Source of the DNA: Escherichia phage AV111
Sequence record: OR352941.1
Length of the DNA: 64,000 bases
Direction: 5' to 3' (one strand)
The position numbers were made by a program, and so were the translations under genes. Of the stretch, positions 12,246-57,622 are shown piece after piece (position 1 is the first letter of the stretch; each line of letters starts with the position of its first letter). The notes beneath the pieces were generated by a model. It was given only the letters and a program-made list of their open reading frames with translations, did not search any database and was not told the origin of the DNA.

Positions 12246-13235
12246 TTAAAGCTTACAAGCAGAACAATCTTCTGCTTTAGGTGTTTCTAATTCATAGTCG
12301 TCTGTACCAGACCCATCACGAGTGTTATGATAGTAGAGGTTTTTTCCGCCAAAGTACCAGAAGTAAAGCAGATCGTCAAGCATTACTGACATTGGCACTT
12401 TACCTTTCTCAAATACTGCAGGGTCATAGTAAGTATTAGCAGAAGCAGATTGGCACACCCATTTCAACATGATAGCAACTTGGGTCAAATAAGGTTTATT
12501 ACCTTTCTTAGCAAGTTTCCACGCGTAGTCGTAAAGACTCATGTTATGTTCTATATTAGGAACAACCTGACGGAAGTTGCCTTCTTTAGATTCTTTAATA
12601 CTTACTGGACCACGTGGTGGCTCAATCCCGTTTGTAGAGTTTGATACTTGACTGCTTGACTCACAAGGCATGAGTGCAGACAACGTTGAGTTACGAATTC
12701 CATGTTCTTTGAGTTCAGCTCGAAGTTCTTCCCAGTCACAGACGTAGTTCGGGGCTGCGATTTGGTCAATCTTTTTATTGTACCAGTCGATAGGTAATTC
12801 GCCTCTAGACCATTTAGTGTCTGAATAATACTCGCAACATCCTTTTTCTTTGGCGAGTTTGATTGATGCTTTGATAAGGCCATATTGCAATCTCTCAAAC
12901 AATTCATGAGTCAAATCGTTAGCGTCTTCATATGAAGCAAAGTTAGAAGCTAACCATGCGGCATAGTTCGTCACACCAACACCGAGGTTTCGACGCTTTT
13001 TAGCTTTTAAAGCTTCTGGAACCGGATAATCTTGATAGTCTAACAGGTTATCAAGTGCACGTACTTGTACTTCAGCAAGTTCATTAATTTTATCTTGGTC
13101 TTGCCAATCAAATTTATCTAATACAAAAGCAGATAATGTGCAAAGGCCCACTTCACCTTTGTTTTCAATAACTTGTATTGTTGTATACTCATCATCTTCG
13201 TAAAATTCATCTACAAATTCATAATCAATATTCAT
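12246..13235 (-). CDS. nrdA: ribonucleotide reductase large subunit, C-terminal piece (nrdA-b), 329 aa with about 26 aa novel N-terminal leader
   Basis: From GEVGLCTLSAF onward aligns to the C-terminal third of class Ia NrdA (…NSTLSALMPCESSSQVSNSTNGIEPP…, C-terminal CSACKL). Confidence 0.8.
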   Translation of the reverse strand: MNIDYEFVDEFYEDDEYTTIQVIENKGEVGLCTLSAFVLDKFDWQDQDKINELAEVQVRALDNLLDYQDYPVPEALKAKKRRNLGVGVTNYAAWLASNFASYEDANDLTHELFERLQYGLIKASIKLAKEKGCCEYYSDTKWSRGELPIDWYNKKIDQIAAPNYVCDWEELRAELKEHGIRNSTLSALMPCESSSQVSNSTNGIEPPRGPVSIKESKEGNFRQVVPNIEHNMSLYDYAWKLAKKGNKPYLTQVAIMLKWVCQSASANTYYDPAVFEKGKVPMSVMLDDLLYFWYFGGKNLYYHNTRDGSGTDDYELETPKAEDCSACKL

Positions 13236-13935
13236 TTAATTCTTCTACCTTTTTTCGAGATATTCCTAGAGCTTTAGATGCTCGATGTATTGATTGATAT
13301 TCTATACCGTTTATTTTTACAGCAATTAAGTTATGGGGTTTTAATCCCTTTGGATGAGGTTTACTGACGTATTCTTGATTATCGTTTTCAGAGATATTAT
13401 CAAGCTTTCGACACTTAAAGCCTTTATGTTGAGACCTTTTGCCTTTGCATACGGCCGACATTGCCGAAGCATTGAGTGAATGTAGTTCGCAAAATTCTCT
13501 TAGGCCTTTATGGATTTCTTCATGACCGTCCGGGAAAGTAAATACCCAAGTTGTTTGAAGTTTTTCTCTATGCTCGTCAGTTACCGGAATACCTTTGTTC
13601 CAAGCTGGTTTGCCTTTATTATTTTCAGATACAGAAATAGCCAATTTTCTTCTAAGCCACCCATGGCGTTTATTGGTGTTCTTTCGTTCAATATTATCTT
13701 CAGAATAAACACACATCATATTAGCGGCAAATACCAATTTATGATTATCTGGATATATCTTTACTAATAATTGATGAGCTATGTAATGCTCTTCGGGTGT
13801 CAAATCTACCAGGTTTTCCTTTGTATCAGAACCACCAATACACAGAGGTATAATATGGTGTGATTCGGTATAGCAATCTAATTTTCTGTTCTTAGCTTTA
13901 GAAATAAGGTTATTGTAAATTTTAGAATAATCCAT
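13225..13935 (-). CDS. HNH homing endonuclease (Mob-like), 236 aa, inserted inside nrdA
   Basis: N-terminal Mob-family signature MDYSKIYNNLISKAKNRKL...HHIIPLCIGGSDTKENLVDLTPEEHYIAHQLL; own start, overlaps the nrdA-b start by 11 nt. Confidence 0.8.
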   Translation of the reverse strand: MDYSKIYNNLISKAKNRKLDCYTESHHIIPLCIGGSDTKENLVDLTPEEHYIAHQLLVKIYPDNHKLVFAANMMCVYSEDNIERKNTNKRHGWLRRKLAISVSENNKGKPAWNKGIPVTDEHREKLQTTWVFTFPDGHEEIHKGLREFCELHSLNASAMSAVCKGKRSQHKGFKCRKLDNISENDNQEYVSKPHPKGLKPHNLIAVKINGIEYQSIHRASKALGISRKKVEELNEY

Positions 13936-13980
13936 AACTTTTCCTCTTGTTATGGATTATTTATTAACGGCCTGTGTACT

Positions 13981-15405
13981 TTATTTGCTTTGAATTATAC
14001 CGCCAGGATTAGCTTCATAAAACTTAGCTACATCCGACTTCTTAATTTTGATTAAACGGGTTTGTTGGCTATTCACATCATTAGTTGGAATAGCGATTTC
14101 ACAACATAAGTTACTTTGACGAATTGGAGCTTTTTCACGAATAAATGGAGTGTAGTTATTCGTGTTATCAACAAACTGCGGATAAATTCGAGCAGTGCCA
14201 GAACGTTCAGTCATGAACAATTCAAAGAGTTCTAGTGCTTTGATTCTTTTCTTTCTGATTGTTGGGTCTTTTTCAGCTTTCTCATAAAGCTCATGGAATT
14301 TATCTTGATCTTCAAAGAACGAGTAGTATAGTTCGCCTGACATTTCGTGAGGGCTAAATAAAGTAATATAATCATTTTTACCAAGGCGTTCCATCATAAG
14401 GTCATTAATCTGAATTCCGTAGTCCATATGTCGAATACGGTTTTCATCTACGCCTTTGTTATTTTTCAGAACTAATAGGTTCTCTACTTCTAAGTGCCAC
14501 ATTGGATAATACGCTGTAGCAGCACCACCACGAATACCACCTTGAGAACAAGATTTTACTGCAGTTTGGAAATGTTTCCAGAATGGAATAACACCCGTAT
14601 GTCGAACTTCACCCATACCGATCTTAGAACCTTCTGCACGAAGCATACCAACGTTGATACCGATACCAGCTCGTTTAGAAATATATTCAATAATTGATGC
14701 TGAAGTTTTGTTAATAGATTTTAACGAATCACCGGCTTCAATAACTACACAACTAGAGAACTGGCGAGTCGGAGTACGAGCACCTGCCATAATTGGAGTA
14801 GGCAATGAAACTTGATGAGTAGAAACGGCATCATAAAAACGAATAATATGTTTCAAACGGTTATGAGTTTCGTCTTGGTGTAAGGCCATACCAATAGCCA
14901 TGATAGCAAACTGGGGAGTTTCATAAATCTTCCCAGTTGTTTTATCTTTAACTAGATATTTTTCTTTAAGCTGCATAGCACCAGCATAAGTCAGGTCAAA
15001 GTCTCGGTCATGTTTAATCTGTGAATCGAGATAAATGATTTCTTCTGCTGAATATTGAGACAACAGCTCAGGGTCATATTTGCCTTCATTAACACAGTAA
15101 GAAATATGGTCGATAAAAGCAGGCGGTTCAAACTGCCCGTATACATCTTTACGAAGTGCAAACATTAGCCCTTTGGCGGCGACATACTGATAATCAGGTT
15201 CTTCGACAGAAATCAAGTTAGCTGCAACTTTAATACAAATCTTCTGAATATCTTTGGTGCTCATCCCATCGACAAGATGGGTCTTAATTTCTTCGTACAA
15301 TTCATATGGGTCAATTTGTGTTCCTTCACATTGCCAAGTTAAGACTTTAATAATTTTCTGTGCATCAAAATTTTGGGATACACCACTGCTCTTATTTACT
15401 TGCAT
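13981..15405 (-). CDS. nrdA: ribonucleotide reductase large subunit, N-terminal piece (nrdA-a), 474 aa with about 29 aa novel C-terminal tail
   Basis: ATP-cone/R1 N-terminus through the active-site strand NLCCEIAIPTNDVN, then diverges and stops. Confidence 0.8.
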   Translation of the reverse strand: MQVNKSSGVSQNFDAQKIIKVLTWQCEGTQIDPYELYEEIKTHLVDGMSTKDIQKICIKVAANLISVEEPDYQYVAAKGLMFALRKDVYGQFEPPAFIDHISYCVNEGKYDPELLSQYSAEEIIYLDSQIKHDRDFDLTYAGAMQLKEKYLVKDKTTGKIYETPQFAIMAIGMALHQDETHNRLKHIIRFYDAVSTHQVSLPTPIMAGARTPTRQFSSCVVIEAGDSLKSINKTSASIIEYISKRAGIGINVGMLRAEGSKIGMGEVRHTGVIPFWKHFQTAVKSCSQGGIRGGAATAYYPMWHLEVENLLVLKNNKGVDENRIRHMDYGIQINDLMMERLGKNDYITLFSPHEMSGELYYSFFEDQDKFHELYEKAEKDPTIRKKRIKALELFELFMTERSGTARIYPQFVDNTNNYTPFIREKAPIRQSNLCCEIAIPTNDVNSQQTRLIKIKKSDVAKFYEANPGGIIQSK

Positions 15406-42698: not shown

Positions 42699-42718
42699 GA
42701 AGCTCCCGAAGGAGCTTA
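42699..42718 (-). terminator. hairpin AAGCUCC-UUCG-GGAGCUU 3' of the HNH gene
   Basis: aagctcccgaaggagctt at 42700-42717. Confidence 0.4.
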
Positions 42719-43528
42719 GGACATCCAACACATTTTATAACCTTTGCAGGTTCTGTTAGGATTATTTAATGCTTTCAATATATTAGAAGACCCTATATCT
42801 AAATACTCTCTTAATTCATAAAGATAGTTAAAATCAATAGTTTCACCTGTTTTTACACTTGTGATTCTTATAGGCCTTCTTTCATATTTAGATTTATACA
42901 ACTCTCTAGTCTTAGCTTTAGTTTCTTCTGACCTAGGAGTGTATGGTTTAAATCCTTTTGTTTTAAATGTTTCCATTCTTGATTTAGTTATTTTATCCCG
43001 GTGTTCTTTTGTTTTTACAGGTGCTTTTCGCCCATTCTCCCGAGATAACTTGTTGGCCTGTATTATTTTATCTATTGCTTCTTGCGTATGAGTTTTACCA
43101 TAAAATGGATTTAATTCGCCTATACGTTGTGAAGCAATATGTGACATTAATTCTCTTGTTGCTTTAGTATGTTTTTTACCTTTAAATGGGTTGCCATTTT
43201 TAGCAATCCATTCTTTCATAAATCTAGAGTGCTCTTTAGAGAATTCTTGTTTAAGCCAATCATAATCTCTAGAATTTCTAGCTCCCATGTAAAAAGCTCT
43301 AATAGCCATAAGCATAGAACGGTTCTTATGAATTTTATAAAGCAATAAATGGGCGATAAAATGCTCTCTAGGGGTCATTTTAACTAGATTTGATTTAGCA
43401 TTACTCCCGCCCATAGATTTAGGCAAAATATGGTGAGTTTCAGTATAATTAGGAATAGTGCTGCGGTTTTTAGCCGCAGCGATAAGTTTATCATAAATTT
43501 TACGATAATTCATTATCCTAGCATCCAA
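42716..43528 (-). CDS. HNH homing endonuclease (MobA-like), 270 aa
   Basis: Mob-family N-terminus MNYRKIYDKLIAAAKNR...HHILPKSMGGSNAKSNLVKMTPREHFIAHLLL plus NUMOD-like repeats (NPFKGKKHT, NPFYGKTHT). Confidence 0.8.
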   Translation of the reverse strand: MDARIMNYRKIYDKLIAAAKNRSTIPNYTETHHILPKSMGGSNAKSNLVKMTPREHFIAHLLLYKIHKNRSMLMAIRAFYMGARNSRDYDWLKQEFSKEHSRFMKEWIAKNGNPFKGKKHTKATRELMSHIASQRIGELNPFYGKTHTQEAIDKIIQANKLSRENGRKAPVKTKEHRDKITKSRMETFKTKGFKPYTPRSEETKAKTRELYKSKYERRPIRITSVKTGETIDFNYLYELREYLDIGSSNILKALNNPNRTCKGYKMCWMS

Positions 43529-45333
43529 TCTTTACGGAGTTCAGGGTCGTTACCCATGAGCATTTCAAATAGTTCTTTCCAATTTTCAGGAAGTTTAACT
43601 ACGTCGTACACAGGGTTTTGAATCATTTCTTTATATTCATCTCGCTGAAGTGAGCCCAATCCCTTGATGTATCGAATACTATGCTTAGGCAGTGTATCTT
43701 TAACTTCTTCATACTCAGCTACAGTATAAAACCATTTTTGAGTTTTGCCAATTTGTGCAATAATTACAGGCGTTTTAACAAAGCGAATACGTCCTTGTTC
43801 AAACAATTCAGGCCAATTACTAAAGAAAGCAAGCAAAGCCGGATAAATGCTTCCAAGACCGTCATGATCGGCATCGGTCATAATTGCAATATTACGATAG
43901 TTCGTATTCTCTGCCTTTTCACCAAGAATAAGACCTGTGATAGCACAGATATCAAAGAGCTCTTTGTTCTTCATCATATCAGCATATGACATACCCCAGC
44001 TATTCATCACCTTACCACGTAATGGGAATCCGCCGTGTAGTTCACGGTCACGAACATCAATGAGATAACCAATTGCCGAATCACCTTCTGTTAAGAACAA
44101 TGTTGTATCTGCATCTTTACCACATTGGTTAGCTTTAATATGCTTATGAACCTTAGCTTTAGTTGCCTTTTTAGCTGCTTTAGTTTCTGCAGCCTTTTCT
44201 GCTGCCAATTTACGAGCTAATGCTGCTTCAACAATAGGCATAATCAAGGCTTCGTTTTTAAGAAGTGCCTGAGCAATTTTCTTAGCATCTAATTGGATAT
44301 GATTACGAATATCACCATACGTTGACGTTAAACGTTCTTTAGTCTGAGAATCAAAACGCATGTTGCTCATGTCTCTAATAAACATCAACATTGTGAGACA
44401 TTCTTTAACACGAGCTTTAGTGACTTCAATACCCTTATATTTCTTTTTAATACCTGGCAAAAGATGTTCGCAGATATCATCCATTACGCATTCAACATGA
44501 TGACCGCCGTTTTTAGTATGGATGTTATTCACATAAGTTAAATGACGGAAGCCATCTGGTGATGTTGTGAATGCTATAGAGACTTTATCATTTTCTTGAA
44601 TGATGTTATCTTCACCAAATTGTTTAGCAAATCGTTTAAAATTACCATCAACCTTTTTACCATTAAATGTGAACTTGATATCAGGATAAACGACTGCCAA
44701 TGTTTGAAGTCGATCTAAAGTAATATCTAAATAAATTTGAGATAAATTATGCTCTTCAAATGAAGAGAAATCAGGAGTGAAGATTACTTTAGTGCCTTTA
44801 CATTTAGATTTCTTAGAAGACCATGATTTGTTTTCCATTCCGTTTGAACAGTTAACAGTGATTTCATTTTCGCCATCTGACGTGATGCCTGTAAACAACG
44901 TAGAGAAGATATTAGTTAAACTACTCCCGACGCCGTTCATACCACCAGTCTTGCGTTCAGAATCATCACCAAAGTTACCACCAGCCTTTGGAATAGTCCA
45001 GGCTGCTACAGGCCCAGGAATTTGTTCACCTGTTTGGTCGGTAACTAAACCTTGAGGAATACCACGTCCGTTATCTTCCACCGAAACTTGATTATTTTTA
45101 ATTTGCACGTCAATTTTATTTGCAAACTTAAATGATGTACGAATAGCTTCATCAACCGAGTTGTCAATAATCTCATCGATTAATTTAACCAGACCAGGAA
45201 CATATTCAACTTGTTGATATTTACCAAACAAAAAACGCTCGTGGGCTTCTTTGGCCGAAGAACCAATATACATGCCACTACGTTTCTTAATATGTTCTAC
45301 ATCTGACAGTACCTTAATTTCATTTTTAATCAT
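43513..45333 (-). CDS. 39: DNA topoisomerase II large subunit gp39 (GyrB-like ATPase), 606 aa, single uninterrupted ORF
   Basis: GHKL ATPase N-terminus and TOPRIM region; corresponds to T4 39 plus 60 combined. Confidence 0.9.
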   Translation of the reverse strand: MIKNEIKVLSDVEHIKKRSGMYIGSSAKEAHERFLFGKYQQVEYVPGLVKLIDEIIDNSVDEAIRTSFKFANKIDVQIKNNQVSVEDNGRGIPQGLVTDQTGEQIPGPVAAWTIPKAGGNFGDDSERKTGGMNGVGSSLTNIFSTLFTGITSDGENEITVNCSNGMENKSWSSKKSKCKGTKVIFTPDFSSFEEHNLSQIYLDITLDRLQTLAVVYPDIKFTFNGKKVDGNFKRFAKQFGEDNIIQENDKVSIAFTTSPDGFRHLTYVNNIHTKNGGHHVECVMDDICEHLLPGIKKKYKGIEVTKARVKECLTMLMFIRDMSNMRFDSQTKERLTSTYGDIRNHIQLDAKKIAQALLKNEALIMPIVEAALARKLAAEKAAETKAAKKATKAKVHKHIKANQCGKDADTTLFLTEGDSAIGYLIDVRDRELHGGFPLRGKVMNSWGMSYADMMKNKELFDICAITGLILGEKAENTNYRNIAIMTDADHDGLGSIYPALLAFFSNWPELFEQGRIRFVKTPVIIAQIGKTQKWFYTVAEYEEVKDTLPKHSIRYIKGLGSLQRDEYKEMIQNPVYDVVKLPENWKELFEMLMGNDPELRKDWMLG

Positions 45334-54335: not shown

Positions 54336-54533
54336 TCGCAGCTCCCTGAGTCCGAACTACAATCGGAATAACTTGAACCAGAATCTCCAGACCAGGATGA
54401 TACGTAAGAATGATTATAACTTGAAGAGTTTGAAGCAGACTTAGGACGAATAACTTCTTCCATCATGCCGTCACCAATGTATTCCCAACTTTTTTCATGT
54501 GTATCAGGAATAGGCATCATACCTTCGCCTGGT

Positions 54534-54761
54534 TTAGCAGCAAACAACTTCTTCAGCATCGTAAGCATTAATTGTTCCTCGAACAAAACGAACACCACCA
54601 TCATCCCAACGGATTTCGGCATTAAATTTGACGTCTTCACCATCCATCATGAATGAGTGTACGACTACGTCATCATAATATCCAAGACCGTATTTCAACG
54701 AAACTTCTTGTGCAATCAAAGCGCCTAATGTGTTATTAGGTTTAATCCAACGATTTAACAT
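54534..54761 (-). CDS. hypothetical protein, 75 aa
   Basis: ORF track; early promoter upstream. Confidence 0.45.
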   Translation of the reverse strand: MLNRWIKPNNTLGALIAQEVSLKYGLGYYDDVVVHSFMMDGEDVKFNAEIRWDDGGVRFVRGTINAYDAEEVVCC

Positions 54762-54789
54762 ATTGTTTTCCTCTTGAGTAAGTAAGAAT

Positions 54790-54822
54790 ATCTTAACACA
54801 GTTTTTAGTGGATGTAAACTCT
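54790..54822 (-). promoter_or_regulatory. T4-type early promoter
   Basis: plus-strand gtaaac about 54817-54822; agtaagaatatcttaacac 54781-54799. Confidence 0.35.
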
Positions 54823-54824
54823 AG

Positions 54825-54856
54825 AAACGAAAAAAGGAATCCCGAAGGATTCCTTA
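54825..54856 (-). terminator. terminator 3' of soc (AGGAAUCC-UUCG-GGAUUCCU + U-rich)
   Basis: aggaatcccgaaggattcct at 54835-54854. Confidence 0.5.
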
Positions 54857-54862
54857 AATTAT

Positions 54863-55099
54863 TTAACCACCTACTTCCGTGGGTGTGAACATTGCTTTGT
54901 TCTTAGTACGCCAATCTGCTGCGTCAGTCACCACAGTAGTGTAAGCAGCTTTTTCAGACGGGAAAGTCTGATAATGAGCATCAGCAATTCGGTGCTCATT
55001 TGAGTAAATCTCAAACGGTACAGAAACTTCCATACCTTTAACTTCTTTACCTTCACCAGCAGGATGCGTAAAGGTTTTGATGTTTACATAACCACCCAT
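54863..55099 (-). CDS. soc: small outer capsid protein Soc, 78 aa
   Basis: GYVNIKTF and AHYQTFPSEKAAY match T4 Soc. Confidence 0.85.
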   Translation of the reverse strand: MGGYVNIKTFTHPAGEGKEVKGMEVSVPFEIYSNEHRIADAHYQTFPSEKAAYTTVVTDAADWRTKNKAMFTPTEVGG

Positions 55100-55130
55100 A
55101 ATTAACTCCTTTGTTGTTTAATTACAGGTG

Positions 55131-55138
55131 TATTTATA
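55131..55138 (-). promoter_or_regulatory. late promoter TATAAATA (minus strand) for soc
   Basis: plus-strand tatttata in the 45-nt gap between gene 56 stop and soc start. Confidence 0.6.
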
Positions 55139-55144
55139 ACTTAA

Positions 55145-55666
55145 TTAGTAACCATTATCCTGACGTTCAAAGTTGTGTTGGTTTTTCAAGTAGTAAAGTT
55201 TAAAGATTTCTTCTGCTGTAAGACCAAGACCCTGGAACATATTCAGAACGAAATGAAGAATATCAATCATCTCAAATTTAATTTCAAGCTGGTCTTCAGG
55301 AGACAGTTCATCGATACGACGATTTCGATATTCAGCATGTTGTGCTTTCCATGGCTTCCATACAGAGCTAGCGGCTTTTTCACCATTGCTCATACCGCCA
55401 AGTGAAGTCAGCAGTTCACGGAATTCGTCATCAATATAATCTTTCTGATTACGCAGCCAATCAACAACATCGCCTGCAGTGGCCAATTCATCAGGATGTT
55501 TGTTATGTTCAGGCTTGTCATTTGCCAGACGAACCTGTAAAGATTTCTGCATATCAAGCATTACCTGCAGTGGGTCTTTATCTTCGTGAATCAGAGCATT
55601 AAAATAAGCTTCTTCTGCTTTATCAACGCCTTCGATCAGTTGACTACATTCGTTGAAATGTGGCAT
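55145..55666 (-). CDS. 56: dCTPase / dUTPase gp56 (dCTP pyrophosphatase), about 173 aa
   Basis: MPHFNECSQLIEGVDKAEEAYF...DPLQVMLDMQ...ELATAGDVVDW... near-identical in outline to T4 gp56; own SD AAGGAAA upstream of ATG 55664-55666. Confidence 0.85.
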   Translation of the reverse strand: MPHFNECSQLIEGVDKAEEAYFNALIHEDKDPLQVMLDMQKSLQVRLANDKPEHNKHPDELATAGDVVDWLRNQKDYIDDEFRELLTSLGGMSNGEKAASSVWKPWKAQHAEYRNRRIDELSPEDQLEIKFEMIDILHFVLNMFQGLGLTAEEIFKLYYLKNQHNFERQDNGY

Positions 55667-56317
55667 GTTATTTTCCTTTCTTATGAAGTTTTCTATCATA
55701 TGTCTATAGCAGATATTAGGATAACCTGCCTTGACAGCTATTTTATTAAATTTTGTGCGCTTAGGTCTATTATTATAAACCCATAATTCATAAAGCGCAT
55801 CATAACTATTCCATATTTCTCCTCGCCTAGGATTTGGTAAACCATATCGAGGCGAATTTTTACCGCTAAATCTTCCTTTTCGGGCTTTACTCATATTAGC
55901 CTTGGCTTCATCGGATATAATTTTACCTTTATGAGCTAGACGCATTTTAGCTTTAGTTTCTTCTGGAGTCTTTTTACCTTTAATCCATGACGGCTTGCCA
56001 TATCTAGGATTATTTTCACCCGAGAAAAGAACAGAGTTTTGGATTTTAAGGGTTTCTATTAATCTACTTGTTAATTTAACACCTTTATTATATCGCATTA
56101 AATTTACAGCATAATGCAATCCTCTCACATCTGGATATATTTTAGTTAATAATCTATGAGCTATAAAATGCTCACGCGCAGTTAACTCAACAAGATTGTT
56201 TTTGCCATCTGCTCCTCCCATACATCTAGGAATTATATGATGGCGTTCTTTATATCCGCAAAGCCGCCGGCATTTAGCTTTTGTAATTAAAGCAGAGTAA
56301 ATTTTTTGGTAATTCAC
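55145..56317 (-). CDS. Mob-like HNH endonuclease ORF (N-terminal about 217 aa) reading in frame, with no stop codon, into gene 56
   Basis: ORF track gives one 390-aa frame; N-terminus MNYQKIYSALITKAKCRRL...HHIIPRCMGGADGKNNLVELTAREHFIAHRLL is the same family as the nrdA-internal and 39-adjacent HNH ORFs. Confidence 0.6.
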   Translation of the reverse strand: MNYQKIYSALITKAKCRRLCGYKERHHIIPRCMGGADGKNNLVELTAREHFIAHRLLTKIYPDVRGLHYAVNLMRYNKGVKLTSRLIETLKIQNSVLFSGENNPRYGKPSWIKGKKTPEETKAKMRLAHKGKIISDEAKANMSKARKGRFSGKNSPRYGLPNPRRGEIWNSYDALYELWVYNNRPKRTKFNKIAVKAGYPNICYRHMIENFIRKENNMPHFNECSQLIEGVDKAEEAYFNALIHEDKDPLQVMLDMQKSLQVRLANDKPEHNKHPDELATAGDVVDWLRNQKDYIDDEFRELLTSLGGMSNGEKAASSVWKPWKAQHAEYRNRRIDELSPEDQLEIKFEMIDILHFVLNMFQGLGLTAEEIFKLYYLKNQHNFERQDNGY

Positions 56318-56405
56318 ATATATCCTTTCAATTCAGTATAAAAGAGTTTAATTCTAACATTAATTTTATAAAGCGTAATAAATAATAGGTAACTAAGGAG
56401 ATATT

Positions 56406-56603
56406 ATGTTTAAACTTCCGTCGTTAATCAACGCTATTAAAGGCAATAAAAAGAAAACTGCTATCGCTGCAATAGTTGTAGGTGGCATTATTTCATGGAA
56501 CTTCGGGATTGCACCATTGTTAGTTGCCCATGGTATTATAGTTCCTTCCGTTCCATTGGATACTGTAGTTGATTTGGCCTTTGCTATTATAGGGCTTGTT
56601 TAA
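56406..56603 (+). CDS. small hydrophobic protein, 65 aa, on the strand opposite to the surrounding early genes
   Basis: Strong SD AAGGAGA 7 nt upstream of ATG; two predicted hydrophobic segments; convergent with gene 61. Confidence 0.45.
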   Translation: MFKLPSLINAIKGNKKKTAIAAIVVGGIISWNFGIAPLLVAHGIIVPSVPLDTVVDLAFAIIGLV

Positions 56604-57622
56604 ATCTTCGAATAACGAGATAATCTCATTTTAGCATGCAACCCACTTGAAATATTCTGTTTCATATATTCTAAAATTTCTTGTGGTGTTGCATTTTCTT
56701 TCATTACCATATCATTCACATCCTTTGATCTCCATGGAGCTAGGTCCCAGAACATGACACGTTCGCCTGCATCAACTAATCGCTTCATGCGAGCTATAGT
56801 ATCCGGATGCCTAGGTTCATTATCCATTACCCATACCCGACGTTCTTTAAATGGTACCACATCTAAATCTATTGAGCCGCCTGTAATAGCGATTGCATTG
56901 GGTATGAATAAACTATCAATAGGGCCTTCCATTACCCAGACGTCTCCTTCCTTAACACGTTCAACACCATAAATTTTTGTTGCAGACTCAAACGCTTTAA
57001 TAGTGATATATTTCTGAGGAGCATCTTTGCGAAGTGCACGTCCTTGAAATGACTCGGCCTTCCCATCTTTATTAAAAATAGGAATCACTAAACGTGGTTC
57101 AGGAATCTCTTTCTTATACGTACCCGGTTGAATCTTGTTGACCAATTTGGGCCATTCTAATGTGAACCATAATCTGTTCCATGATTCTTTAGGAATACAC
57201 CGAGACTTAACATATTTCACAATAGGATGCTCTTCAGGCAACTTGTCTAGACGAGAACAAGACGGCAAAGAATTTATAGTCTTTTTCTCTGGCTCCGGTT
57301 TAGCTTCAGGAACCTTTTCAATCTTTGGTTCCATTCTAGCTTTTTCTTTACGAACTTCCATTAGATATTCGCGATAAAGCTCTTCATCATACTCTTTTAA
57401 GTATCCGGAAATTGTATTGTGGTATTGACAGTTATAGCAATGCACATTACCAGGAGTACCGCCATAATACCATCCGCGAGCTTTCATTGCATCTGTCTGG
57501 GAGTCGCCACAAACTGGACATCGAAATGTTAATTTAAATGTGCTTGAATTATTGATTTGTCTAAAACGAGGTAGGTGAGAAAACGCACGATAAGCAAATT
57601 CATTATCTATCCATTCAGCCAT
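56600..57622 (-). CDS. 61: DNA primase gp61, 340 aa
   Basis: N-terminal zinc ribbon (CPVCGDS ... CYNCQYH) and TOPRIM region matching T4 gp61. Confidence 0.9.
   Translation of the reverse strand: MAEWIDNEFAYRAFSHLPRFRQINNSSTFKLTFRCPVCGDSQTDAMKARGWYYGGTPGNVHCYNCQYHNTISGYLKEYDEELYREYLMEVRKEKARMEPKIEKVPEAKPEPEKKTINSLPSCSRLDKLPEEHPIVKYVKSRCIPKESWNRLWFTLEWPKLVNKIQPGTYKKEIPEPRLVIPIFNKDGKAESFQGRALRKDAPQKYITIKAFESATKIYGVERVKEGDVWVMEGPIDSLFIPNAIAITGGSIDLDVVPFKERRVWVMDNEPRHPDTIARMKRLVDAGERVMFWDLAPWRSKDVNDMVMKENATPQEILEYMKQNISSGLHAKMRLSRYSKI

Follow-up and report, generated by a model that had tools for sequence, protein, structure and literature searches.

The reading frame of a Mob-family HNH homing endonuclease in Escherichia phage AV111 (OR352941.1) runs without a stop codon into gene 56, and comparison with orthologous loci identifies the cause as a one-nucleotide deletion in a run of five adenines (A5). 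We propose, with a probability of roughly 0.85, that this is a standard homing endonuclease gene (HEG) which has lost one base from a homopolymer, that the loss is near-neutral, and that the phage makes a minor fusion polypeptide alongside independently initiated gp56. As homopolymer indels go it is ordinary, though its consequence is unusual; it is a curiosity and not a new kind of system, leaves the current understanding of homing endonucleases unchanged and is a tidy example of known HEG instability. The window, i.e. the whole stretch of AV111 DNA that was analysed, comprises 64,000 nt, and the features discussed are collected in Table 1.

Table 1 Features at the HNH/gene 56 locus of phage AV111, in window coordinates.
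Feature	Position	Strand	Description
HNH + gp56 dCTPase fused frame	55145..56317	-	390 aa, GTG start, sole stop 55147-55145
Mob-family HNH homing endonuclease	55667..56317	-	codons 1-217; phrog_655, NUMOD3 repeats
Gene 56 (predicted dCTPase/dUTPase, 173 aa)	55145..55666	-	own ATG 55666-55664; dUTPase_2, phrog_173
Junction GAAAGG-AAAA-TAAC	55667..55680	-	replacement Shine-Dalgarno for gene 56; alignments and regex count
A4 run (A5 in orthologues)	55674-55671	-	inside junction
TAA, now out of frame	55670-55668	-	inside junction
GAAAGGA, native gene 56 Shine-Dalgarno, now for HNH GTG	56323..56329	-	empty-site comparison (G2469, T4)
MotA-type middle-promoter-like element, ACGCTTTA, 12 nt, TAGAAT	56351..56376	-	consensus match only
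Donor-type (HEG-linked) patch, gene 56 nt 1-39	55628..55666	-	matches HEG-carrying Tequatrovirus at 12/12 informative sites
Late-promoter consensus TATAAATA	55132..55139	-	between gene 56 and soc; 'predicted late promoter' in the same place in fPS-90
Intrinsic-terminator-like hairpin	54834..54855	-	after soc

Results

The fused frame and the one-base deletion

The ORF list and the sequence agree on a single uninterrupted frame, in which the residues at the junction are ...IRKENN-MPHFNEC... and the nucleotides just before the gene 56 ATG are GAAAGGAAAATAAC. The first-pass annotation had described the HNH frame as open into gene 56, and both the 390-aa ORF and the junction residues match that description. 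The protein is identical to WPK34241.1 of AV111. Its HNH half lacks a stop of its own ahead of the one that ends gene 56; such a stop is present at 14 of the 16 loci that were read. Judged by these sequences, the continuity of the frame is a specific difference from the orthologues and not a chance open frame.

The standard junction, seen in 13 loci from Tequatrovirus and Jiaodavirus, is AAGGAAAAATAACATG, with the HNH gene ending ...RKEK-TAA one base before the gene 56 ATG. Among the 16 HNH-bearing loci read directly, the run is A5 in 13 (fPS-2, 235Ecol030PP and Mexia are aligned examples), A6 in one and A4 in two, the latter being AV111, a Mosigvirus, and Shigella phage SSE1, with the product ...RKENN-MPHF.... 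In the A5 form, gene 56 is in frame +1 relative to the HNH gene, so the loss of one A fuses the two frames; the earlier suspicion that the endonuclease had lost its stop is thereby confirmed, A5 having become A4 relative to the orthologues. The A6 allele, found in Yersinia phage PYPS2T, gives a 227-aa HNH protein, which suggests that the run is prone to indels and that the C-terminal tail of the endonuclease tolerates change.

About 55 phage records bear the HNH gene, and all but SSE1 are annotated with separate HNH and dCTPase CDSs. These other records are 1-2 nt longer across the query, and in ten further loci the HNH gene spans 614-1264 and gene 56 begins at 1266. Three distinct fusion proteins of 390 aa were found, namely those of AV111, SSE1 and EPO1808421.1 from an E. 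coli assembly; the first two genomes were compared at the DNA level and the third as a protein. A4 is found in each of the three Mosigvirus carriers known, and A5 in none of them. The same distribution is also the outcome expected if A4 were selected for in Mosigvirus. As the three proteins differ from one another at several other residues, A4 is an inherited allele, not an artefact of sequencing. An error of sequencing or assembly, behind which the true genome would have A5 and a normal stop, might be suspected from a difference of one base in a homopolymer run, yet we give it almost no credence: the run is just 4-5 nt, AV111 was sequenced by Illumina MiSeq (PMC10844046), the allele recurs in the independently sequenced SSE1 and in the third protein, and A4 occurs only in Mosigvirus carriers and in none of the 14 other loci read. 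Both AV111, which lyses 46 ESBL/AmpC E. coli strains (PMC10844046), and SSE1, a working lytic phage (PMC10204329), are viable.

Exact-pattern scans for the A4 and A5 junctions found none in IMG/VR or JGI metagenomes, a megablast search with the locus gave no match in complete E. coli genomes or PLSDB plasmids, and no protein matching both HNH and gp56 was found in the best 150 of 16,349 matches (1.84 billion representatives). One gp56 homologue, P0278, has an unrelated N-terminal extension of about 100 aa.

Insertion site and flanking sequence

Comparison with the empty sites of G2469 (...TGAATTGAAAGGAAAAAATAATG...) and T4 (...TGAATTGAAAGGAAAACTAATG...) places the HEG insertion point directly 3' of the native Shine-Dalgarno GAAAGGA, and most Mosigvirus matches, which have no insert, cover 65% of the query in two pieces. 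Two phages of the AV111 collection, AV109 and AV114, are listed as closest to G2469 and are candidate HEG-less Mosigvirus. On this alignment, the HEG sits between the native middle promoter and Shine-Dalgarno of gene 56 and its ATG. The promoter-like element is also present in the empty site, and in fPS-2 and fPS-90 the annotation has a 'predicted middle promoter' at the corresponding position; the predicted MotA-type element now upstream of the HNH gene is the native promoter of gene 56. No terminator-like site was found between the HNH gene and gene 56, and gene 56 keeps the position that it has in T4 and relatives, between primase gene 61 (56600-57622) and soc (54863-55099).

The HEG is a presence/absence polymorphism at a fixed site among relatives, with a donor-type flank. 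At the 5' end of gene 56, the donor-type patch extends over nt 1-39 in AV111 and nt 1-36 in SSE1, and downstream of it gene 56 switches to Mosigvirus type. Relative to T4, HEG-positive alleles have 10-13 differences in the first 42 nt and one in the next 75. The patch is probably a co-conversion tract and a cleavage-resistant variant of the target. Between AV111 and SSE1, the cassette of HEG and A4 run has one difference in its last 630 nt and the gene 56 bodies have 19 in 483 nt; the closer similarity of the cassette suggests that, once the deletion had occurred, the cassette passed from one backbone to another.

The endonuclease and gp56 halves

PHROGs assigns residues 1-211 to phrog_655 'homing endonuclease' (5.6e-58), and in the 390-aa protein Pfam recognises NUMOD3 towards the N-terminus and dUTPase_2 towards the C-terminus. 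The HNH motif takes the form HH(26-27)...N41...H50/H54; H26, H27, N41, H50 and H54 are invariant across 60 aligned sequences, the AV111 protein among them, and all invariant and near-invariant columns of the family are kept in AV111. The AV111 HNH gene has 99.1% nucleotide identity to g030c of fPS-2, with extra changes clustered in codons 8-20, and that of SSE1 differs from the fPS-2 gene by 1 nt plus the deletion. Close homologues are all 216-218 aa long, the 216-aa orthologues ending ...IRKEK, ...IRKEN or ...NRK. It had been suggested that gp56 now supplies the natural C-terminus of the endonuclease, but the AV111 HNH aligns end to end with these orthologues, and PHROG profile coverage is equal in the HNH and its paralogues, so the suggestion is wrong. 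By sequence, the endonuclease is complete apart from its stop codon. Deeper HNH comparisons point to purifying selection on the family, with 28 synonymous versus 7 non-synonymous substitutions and 43 versus 20; between AV111 and SSE1 there are 2 synonymous and 4 non-synonymous substitutions, too few for a selection test.

No Rfam family was found at E<=0.1 in 54500-57000, and the context of a group I intron or another RNA family was rejected on that ground. Pfam likewise found no Hint/intein domain in the 390-aa protein, and an intein was rejected because there is no Hint splicing domain and the HNH precedes a complete gp56 without interrupting it. From this context, the endonuclease is of the free-standing type, outside an intron or intein. 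NCBIfam gave no match for either half, no sequence relative was found in the PDB, and Foldseek returned only weak, uninformative HNH-domain matches for the HNH model.

The C-terminal half matches phrog_173 'NTP pyrophosphohydrolase' (1.6e-45) and dUTPase_2 (26.9 bits against a cut-off of 22.9), and is 95% identical to annotated dCTP pyrophosphatases of a family 171-173 aa long. It aligns gap-free over 173 columns in a 48-sequence alignment, its best 120 cluster representatives are all 157-173 aa, and Foldseek gave weak yet consistent DCTPP1/MazG matches for its model. Judged by these alignments, gp56 is complete and colinear with its family over the full length, and is a predicted dCTPase/dUTPase.

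The two structures were modelled as separate parts (AF2 for gp56). In the gp56 model residues 1-7 are unstructured and the first helix begins at residue 8, and the terminal helix of the HNH model spans residues 204-216, which leaves about 9 flexible residues in the fusion. A short flexible connector between the halves is plausible on these models.

One alternative shares its origin with our preferred explanation and differs in the consequence. The deletion would be a loss of function, in which 173 aa, appended nearly linker-free to the C-terminal, probably DNA-binding, helices, disable the nuclease, and the allele would have been kept since the HEG is fixed at an immune site, or since a harmful nuclease is selected against in Mosigvirus. 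Frameshifts and variable stops are the typical way in which HEGs degenerate (PMC10448857), the last HNH helix leaves just those 9 or so flexible residues, A4 is found in all Mosigvirus carriers, and the extra changes in codons 8-20 of AV111 would fit such decay. We nevertheless hold it to be unlikely: the HNH is intact but for its stop, 99% identical to standard copies and in possession of its invariant residues, the cassette of HEG and A4 suggests movement between backbones after the deletion, and the usual route of inactivation is a frameshift early in the ORF.

At the other extreme, the fusion could be an adaptive, bifunctional protein that, for example, ties the HEG to an essential product or brings the nuclease to the dNTP-synthesis/replication complex. 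The presence of A4 in three distinct genomes from different places and in every known Mosigvirus carrier, the apparent spread of the cassette across gene 56 backbones, and a gp56 N-terminus whose modelled lack of structure could accommodate an extension would all be in keeping with this. Neither a two-half protein among the best 150 representatives nor an extended gp56 among the 120 cluster representatives was found, however, and about 54 other carriers retain the stop; the A6 sister allele looks like simple indel noise at the run, and the fusion is one nucleotide from the standard form, without an evolved linker. An adaptive origin is therefore, in our judgement, quite improbable. A further long shot is the idea that the A4 allele encodes a stable, bifunctional, homing-competent HNH-dCTPase whose cassette has been spreading among Mosigvirus backbones ever since the deletion. 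If so, it would represent an early stage of a selfish endonuclease becoming covalently tied to an essential host enzyme, and loss or silencing of the HEG would affect gene 56 expression. An otherwise intact HNH, the similarity of the cassettes and the predicted flexibility of the gp56 N-terminus are compatible with a spreading fusion of this kind.

Translation signals

Gene 56 had been noted to keep its own Shine-Dalgarno and start codon, and this holds: AAGGA is followed after 7 nt by the ATG, and the A4 form has the same spacing as the Mosigvirus site without a HEG. In the centroid fold the start region is unpaired. A crude thermodynamic RBS estimate, from a simplified re-implementation in which the spacing penalty is perhaps overstated, gave -1.4 kcal/mol for the gp56 start with both A4 and A5, and +8 to +11 for the HNH start. 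It is plausible that a fusion polypeptide is made from the HNH start, as nothing in the sequence would halt a ribosome. The tryptic peptide that spans the fusion junction is ENNMPHFNECSQLIEGVDK, and the N-terminal peptide of free gp56 is (M)PHFNECSQLIEGVDK. A weak 7-bp stem involves the HNH Shine-Dalgarno in AV111 (z = -1.37), and its complementary stretch is altered, by eye, in SSE1; regulation by an RBS-sequestering hairpin was rejected on these grounds.

The A-run might alternatively be a programmed recoding site or phase-variable switch, at which regulated slippage sets the ratio of separate to fused products, and in A5 phages the Shine-Dalgarno-like AAGGA with AAA-TAA-C could permit prfB-like +1 frameshifting. 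Three length alleles do occur at this single run, and A5 phages have gene 56 in the +1 frame directly after an in-ORF Shine-Dalgarno and stop. Runs of 4-6 A are, however, too short for known transcriptional slippage, there is neither a slippery heptamer nor a structured stimulator (junction fold z-score +0.4 to +0.55), no Rfam match was obtained, the alleles are fixed per lineage and unmixed, and the frame of AV111 is already continuous and requires no recoding. We consider recoding extremely improbable. A programmed frameshift site at the AV111 junction itself was rejected, given the single continuous frame, a z-score of +0.40 and the lack of an Rfam match.

Discussion

Proposed origin and expression of the fused frame

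We propose that a standard HEG entered Mosigvirus by homing from a Tequatrovirus-like donor and brought with it the patch of 36-39 nt at the 5' end of gene 56, which probably marks the target of the nuclease. The HEG would start at its GTG using the old Shine-Dalgarno of gene 56, and its last codons hold a copy of that signal (GAAAGGA) predicted to serve gene 56; the standard end reads ...GAA AAA TAA, one base, ATG. In one Mosigvirus lineage, comprising AV111, SSE1 and the E. coli-assembly contig, the A5 run has lost one A, which puts the TAA out of frame and lets the HEG frame run through the whole of gene 56. Ribosomes that initiate at the HNH GTG would then produce a 45-kDa HNH-gp56 fusion, probably a minor species because the HNH start, with its GTG and short Shine-Dalgarno spacing, looks weaker than that of gene 56. 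The bulk of gp56 (20 kDa) would come from independent initiation at its own Shine-Dalgarno and ATG, and the termination-reinitiation coupling expected at TAA-C-ATG would be lost. A4 would be a near-neutral homopolymer indel and not a designed fusion.

The allele has consequences for annotation. The SSE1 record has a single 390-aa 'homing endonuclease' CDS at the locus and no annotated gene 56, the AV111 protein is also named 'homing endonuclease', and the exact 173-aa gp56 sequence is absent from the protein collection searched. With the locus labelled in this way, an essential gene is hidden from annotation. Because of the fusion proteins, HNH and gp56 sequences also fall together in a single cluster at 90% identity, and homology searches are distorted as a result. 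A4, A5 and A6 make up a natural allelic series at a HEG/host-gene junction in culturable phages, which could be used to study the dependence of an essential T4-type gene on termination-reinitiation coupling to an upstream HEG, the tolerance of a Mob-type nuclease to a large C-terminal extension, and the cut site of the HEG, for which the 40-nt patch that opens gene 56 is a candidate.

Comparison with known systems

The closest known counterparts are the 216-aa HNH orthologues of Tequatrovirus and Jiaodavirus (e.g. fPS-2 g030c, YP_010076917.1, 'MobE/MobD-like'). They are the same gene, with up to 99.1% nucleotide identity, at the same insertion point, and share the replacement Shine-Dalgarno and the HEG-linked form of the first ~40 nt of gene 56. 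Where the orthologues have A5 and end in a TAA that precedes the gene 56 ATG by one base, AV111 has A4 and a frame of 390 aa with no stop at the junction. T4 SegF is likewise a free-standing HEG adjoining gene 56 whose spread co-converts the gene 56 flank, and a passage of PMC2330249, citing Belle et al. 2002, attributes to it the exclusion of T2 gene 56. However, SegF belongs to the GIY-YIG family, and in the T4 order 61-dam-56-segF-soc it lies on the opposite flank of gene 56, as a separate ORF that runs in a different frame and overlaps the gene's 3' end. The first-pass annotation had proposed a different endonuclease occupying the same hotspot in an unusual way; the HNH gene does adjoin gene 56, but segF is on the 3' side, and this HNH gene upstream of gene 56, normally a separate ORF, is common, with ~55 phage records; what is unusual is the deletion alone.

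MobE and the Mob family of T4 resemble the AV111 endonuclease in belonging to phrog_655 and combining HNH with NUMOD3, but T4 MobE is a separate ORF between nrdA and nrdB. The nrdA gene of AV111, also within the window, is itself split by a Mob HNH. Expression of free-standing HEGs is usually kept low (PMC2330249); no significant RBS-sequestering hairpin was found at the AV111 HNH. HEGs of Vibrio phage ICP1 show frameshifts and variable stop positions among close isolates (PMC10448857). The ICP1 changes split or truncate HEGs, whereas that of AV111 extends a HEG into an essential host gene. Entanglement of a HEG with a host gene is also known from the 'genes in pieces' of Aeh1 MobE. Like inteins and Aeh1 MobE, the AV111 HEG is physically entangled with an essential gene of nucleotide metabolism; unlike them, it has no Hint/splicing domain and lies N-terminal to an intact host protein, not within it.

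T4 genes 49, 17 and 69 have an internal in-frame Shine-Dalgarno and ATG, and their long and short products share a C-terminus. By analogy, the AV111 locus would be expected to act as these genes do, through internal initiation. The nested genes of T4 are long-standing and functional, whereas the AV111 fusion would be a recent accident that joins two unrelated proteins.

Fused reading frame and its origin

A first-pass annotation had described a Mob-family HNH endonuclease frame running without a stop into gene 56 (dCTPase), and this proved accurate: one ORF of 390 aa joins the two through ...IRKENN-MPHFNEC..., and the exact protein is WPK34241.1, named 'homing endonuclease [Escherichia phage AV111]'. 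The gp56 part is 95% identical to annotated dCTP pyrophosphatases. Close homologues of the HNH part all have 216-218 aa, the closest being the standard 216-aa orthologue. Because the HNH part aligns with these homologues end to end, and covers the phrog_655 profile to the same extent as both paralogues in the window, the proposal that gp56 supplies the natural C-terminus of the nuclease is rejected. Another proposal, loss of the endonuclease stop, is upheld, the cause being a 1-nt deletion in the A run at the junction (five A's, A5, to four, A4).

Features of the HNH-gene 56 locus and of the other Mob-family HNH genes (positions in the window unless another record is named)
Feature	Position	Strand	Evidence or remark
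390-aa uninterrupted ORF	56317 (GTG) to stop 55147-55145	minus	sequence and ORF list
Mob-family HNH homing endonuclease	residues 1-217	minus	phrog_655 5.6e-58; Pfam NUMOD3; intact HH...N...H
gp56 dCTPase, complete	residues 218-390	minus	Pfam dUTPase_2 above cut-off; phrog_173
Gene 56 ATG	55666-55664	minus	GAAAGGAAAATAAC directly 5'
Donor-type patch	55628-55666	minus	first 39 nt of gene 56 (AV111); first 36 nt in SSE1
A6 sister allele	714-1397 of L007 (Yersinia phage PYPS2T); also PYps10T/PYps11T records		HNH 227 aa (...RKEKITCHISTNVVN); 31-nt overlap with gene 56
NrdA N-terminal part, 474 aa	13981-15405	minus	phrog_84 positions 63-496
HNH ORF, 236 aa	13225-13935	minus	phrog_655
NrdA C-terminal part, 329 aa	12246-13235	minus	phrog_84 positions 502-795
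Third Mob-family HNH ORF, 270 aa, TTG start	42716-43528	minus	phrog_655

About 55 phage records (Tequatrovirus, Jiaodavirus-type Klebsiella phages and Dhakavirus VR5, whose HNH copy is diverged) have this HNH directly upstream of gene 56, and all but one are annotated with HNH and dCTPase as separate genes. In the junction alignment the standard form is AAGGAAAAATAACATG; the HNH gene ends ...AAG GAA AAA TAA (216 aa, ...RKEK), followed by one base and the gene 56 ATG. In the window and in Shigella phage SSE1 (MK639187, Mosigvirus) the run is one A shorter (A4 rather than A5), giving the frame GAA AAT AAC ATG with TAA out of frame. Among 16 loci whose junctions were read directly, 13 carry A5, two A4 and one (Yersinia phage PYPS2T) A6, a sister allele which indicates that the run is indel-prone in both directions. 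The fused frame is thus the product of one deleted base in a short homopolymer whose length differs between lineages.

Three distinct 390-aa fusion proteins are on record, from AV111, from SSE1 (QBZ71023.1) and from a 170,875-bp contig of an E. coli assembly (EPO1808421.1). Each half shows several residue differences among the three, and the AV111 and SSE1 DNA differs at 6 positions in HNH and 20 in gene 56. Attributing A4 to sequencing error would demand three independent identical errors at the junction, which is not credible; the allele is, moreover, limited to the only Mosigvirus carriers and missing from 14 other loci. AV111 (OR352941) is a 172.6-kb Mosigvirus isolated from wastewater, sequenced by Illumina MiSeq and lytic on 46 ESBL/AmpC E. 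coli strains (PMC10844046). Its nearest relatives in the phage collection searched are ~96% identical. Both AV111 and SSE1 have been propagated as lytic phages, and therefore dCTPase function is evidently adequate in both. From established knowledge of T4, gene 56 should be essential in the hydroxymethylcytosine phages of this group. Its role has been summarised elsewhere (PMC2993671).

The fusion is confined to a small Mosigvirus lineage, since the best 150 hits out of 1.84 billion representatives include no protein that matches both halves, and the best 120 gp56 cluster representatives were all 157-173 aa. A metagenomic protein of 278 aa (P0278) is a distant gp56 homologue (39% identity) with an unrelated N-terminal extension of ~100 aa, which may be a further N-terminal fusion or an artefact of gene calling. 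The fused frame also affects annotation. In SSE1 the 390-aa ORF (L001 1883-3055) is annotated only as 'homing endonuclease' and the record has no gene 56 CDS; the AV111 protein (55145-56317) bears the same name. The protein collection has no entry identical to the window's 173-aa gp56. The fusions also place 216-aa HNH and 173-aa gp56 sequences in a single cluster (90% identity, 162 members), and this concealed the gp56 homologues in a first protein search.

Insertion and expression

The empty site reads ...ACGCTTTA-12 nt-TAGAAT...CTGAATTGAAAGGAAAAAATAATGGCACAC... in G2469, a Mosigvirus without the homing-endonuclease gene (HEG), and ...TGAATTGAAAGGAAAACTAATGGCTCAC... in T4. Native sequence is kept in the window through GAAAGGA. 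Because this motif now precedes HNH as its start signal (GAAAGGA-TATAT-GTG), and a second GAAAGGA at the HEG end serves gene 56, the HEG has been inserted between the promoter and Shine-Dalgarno sequence of gene 56 and its ATG. The native promoter is of MotA type as judged by consensus, the equivalent position being annotated 'predicted middle promoter' in the HEG-carrying relatives fPS-2 and fPS-90. No terminator-like site was found between HNH and gene 56, and no intron or other Rfam family at the locus.

Gene 56, as first annotated, does keep its own Shine-Dalgarno sequence and ATG; the A4 spacing from AAGGA is 7 nt, the same as at the HEG-less Mosigvirus site, and the start region is unpaired in the centroid fold. 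In a crude thermodynamic estimate (a published RBS model in simplified form, trustworthy in direction alone) the gp56 start is equally strong with A4, A5 or A6, and the HNH start, a GTG 5 nt after AAGGA, has a far lower score. Such a weak start agrees with phage HEGs being expressed at low levels in general (PMC2330249). HNH and gene 56 would be co-transcribed on one transcript. Since the gp56 start is unchanged and unpaired and the HNH start is weaker, the main product is expected to be free gp56 of 20 kDa from independent initiation, with a 45-kDa fusion as a minor product of ribosomes initiating at the HNH GTG; the TAA-C-ATG layout that would permit termination-reinitiation coupling is gone in A4. 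Production of the fusion is plausible. In AF2 models, gp56 residues 1-7 are unstructured, with the first helix from residue 8 (mean pLDDT 87), and HNH has a terminal helix at 204-216, with low confidence over residues 160-217. Because of this arrangement, the two parts could fold as separate modules with ~9 flexible residues between them. The finding would gain interest if the fused nuclease were active and still homing.

Homing signature and history of the A4 allele

The donor-type patch at the 5' end of gene 56 is identical to HEG-carrying Tequatrovirus at every informative site, and the sequence beyond is of Mosigvirus type. HEG-carrying Tequatrovirus differ from T4 at 10-13 positions in gene 56 nt 1-42 and at 1 in the next 75. 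The patch looks like a cleavage-resistant target variant brought by co-conversion and, since the dense cluster of changes adjoins the HEG, we infer a candidate nuclease target near the start of HEG-less gene 56, in its first ~40 nt. Transfer of the HEG into Mosigvirus appears recent, because the SSE1 and fPS-2 HNH genes differ by one substitution and the deletion. In the T4 record (L018, 3264) the replication origin oriA, primed by the gene 56 transcript, lies at ~nt 23 of gene 56; in HEG carriers this position falls inside the variant patch, with 651 nt of HEG between oriA and the middle promoter.

Identity between AV111 and SSE1 is 98.3% in gene 61, 98.6% in the intergenic region, 99.1% in HNH (1 difference in the last 630 nt) and 96.1% in gene 56 beyond the patch. 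A sharp mosaic boundary lies just 3' of gene 56, where soc (54863-55099 vs L001) and its flank fall to 84.9%, against 96-99% in the neighbours. The AV111 and SSE1 gene 56 bodies (19 differences) are no closer to each other than to that of G2469 (15 and 17), so the cassette of HEG and A4 goes back to a more recent common ancestor than the gene 56 backbones beside it, and the patch ends at the recombination joint. Movement of this cassette from one Mosigvirus backbone to another, by homing or ordinary recombination, would fit these findings; recurrent deletion following separate HEG acquisitions is less parsimonious but also compatible with the data. AV111 alone has 5 nt differences from all other HNH copies within 35 nt (56260-56294, HNH codons 8-20): S8 synonymous, H18R via two changes, and G20C. 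Elsewhere the gene hardly differs, and the family does not conserve these positions; patch recombination and clustered mutation are possible origins.

Comparison with known systems

The first-pass annotation suggested that a different endonuclease occupies the gene 56 hotspot, next to which T4 has segF. The family does differ, segF being GIY-YIG, but segF lies on the opposite side of gene 56 (T4 order 61-dam-56-segF-soc). An intein was rejected, as Pfam gave no Hint domain, and recoding is not needed to explain the continuous frame. Elsewhere in the window, nrdA is apparently split by a Mob-family HNH gene (12246-15405, minus strand), with no group I intron detected there at E<=0.1; the layout is similar to the 'genes in pieces' nrdA of Aeromonas phage Aeh1. 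The 270-aa HNH ORF lies directly 3' of the 606-aa topoisomerase II large-subunit gene (43513-45333), with a 16-nt overlap.

Instability of HEG reading frames, in the form of frameshifts and variable stops, is documented (PMC10448857). At gene 56, an otherwise standard HNH HEG of the free-standing kind has lost its stop through a homopolymer indel and now reads on into an essential gene. In T4, nested in-frame genes yield a long and a short product with a common C-terminus, and the behaviour expected of the window, a long and a short product ending alike, resembles these.
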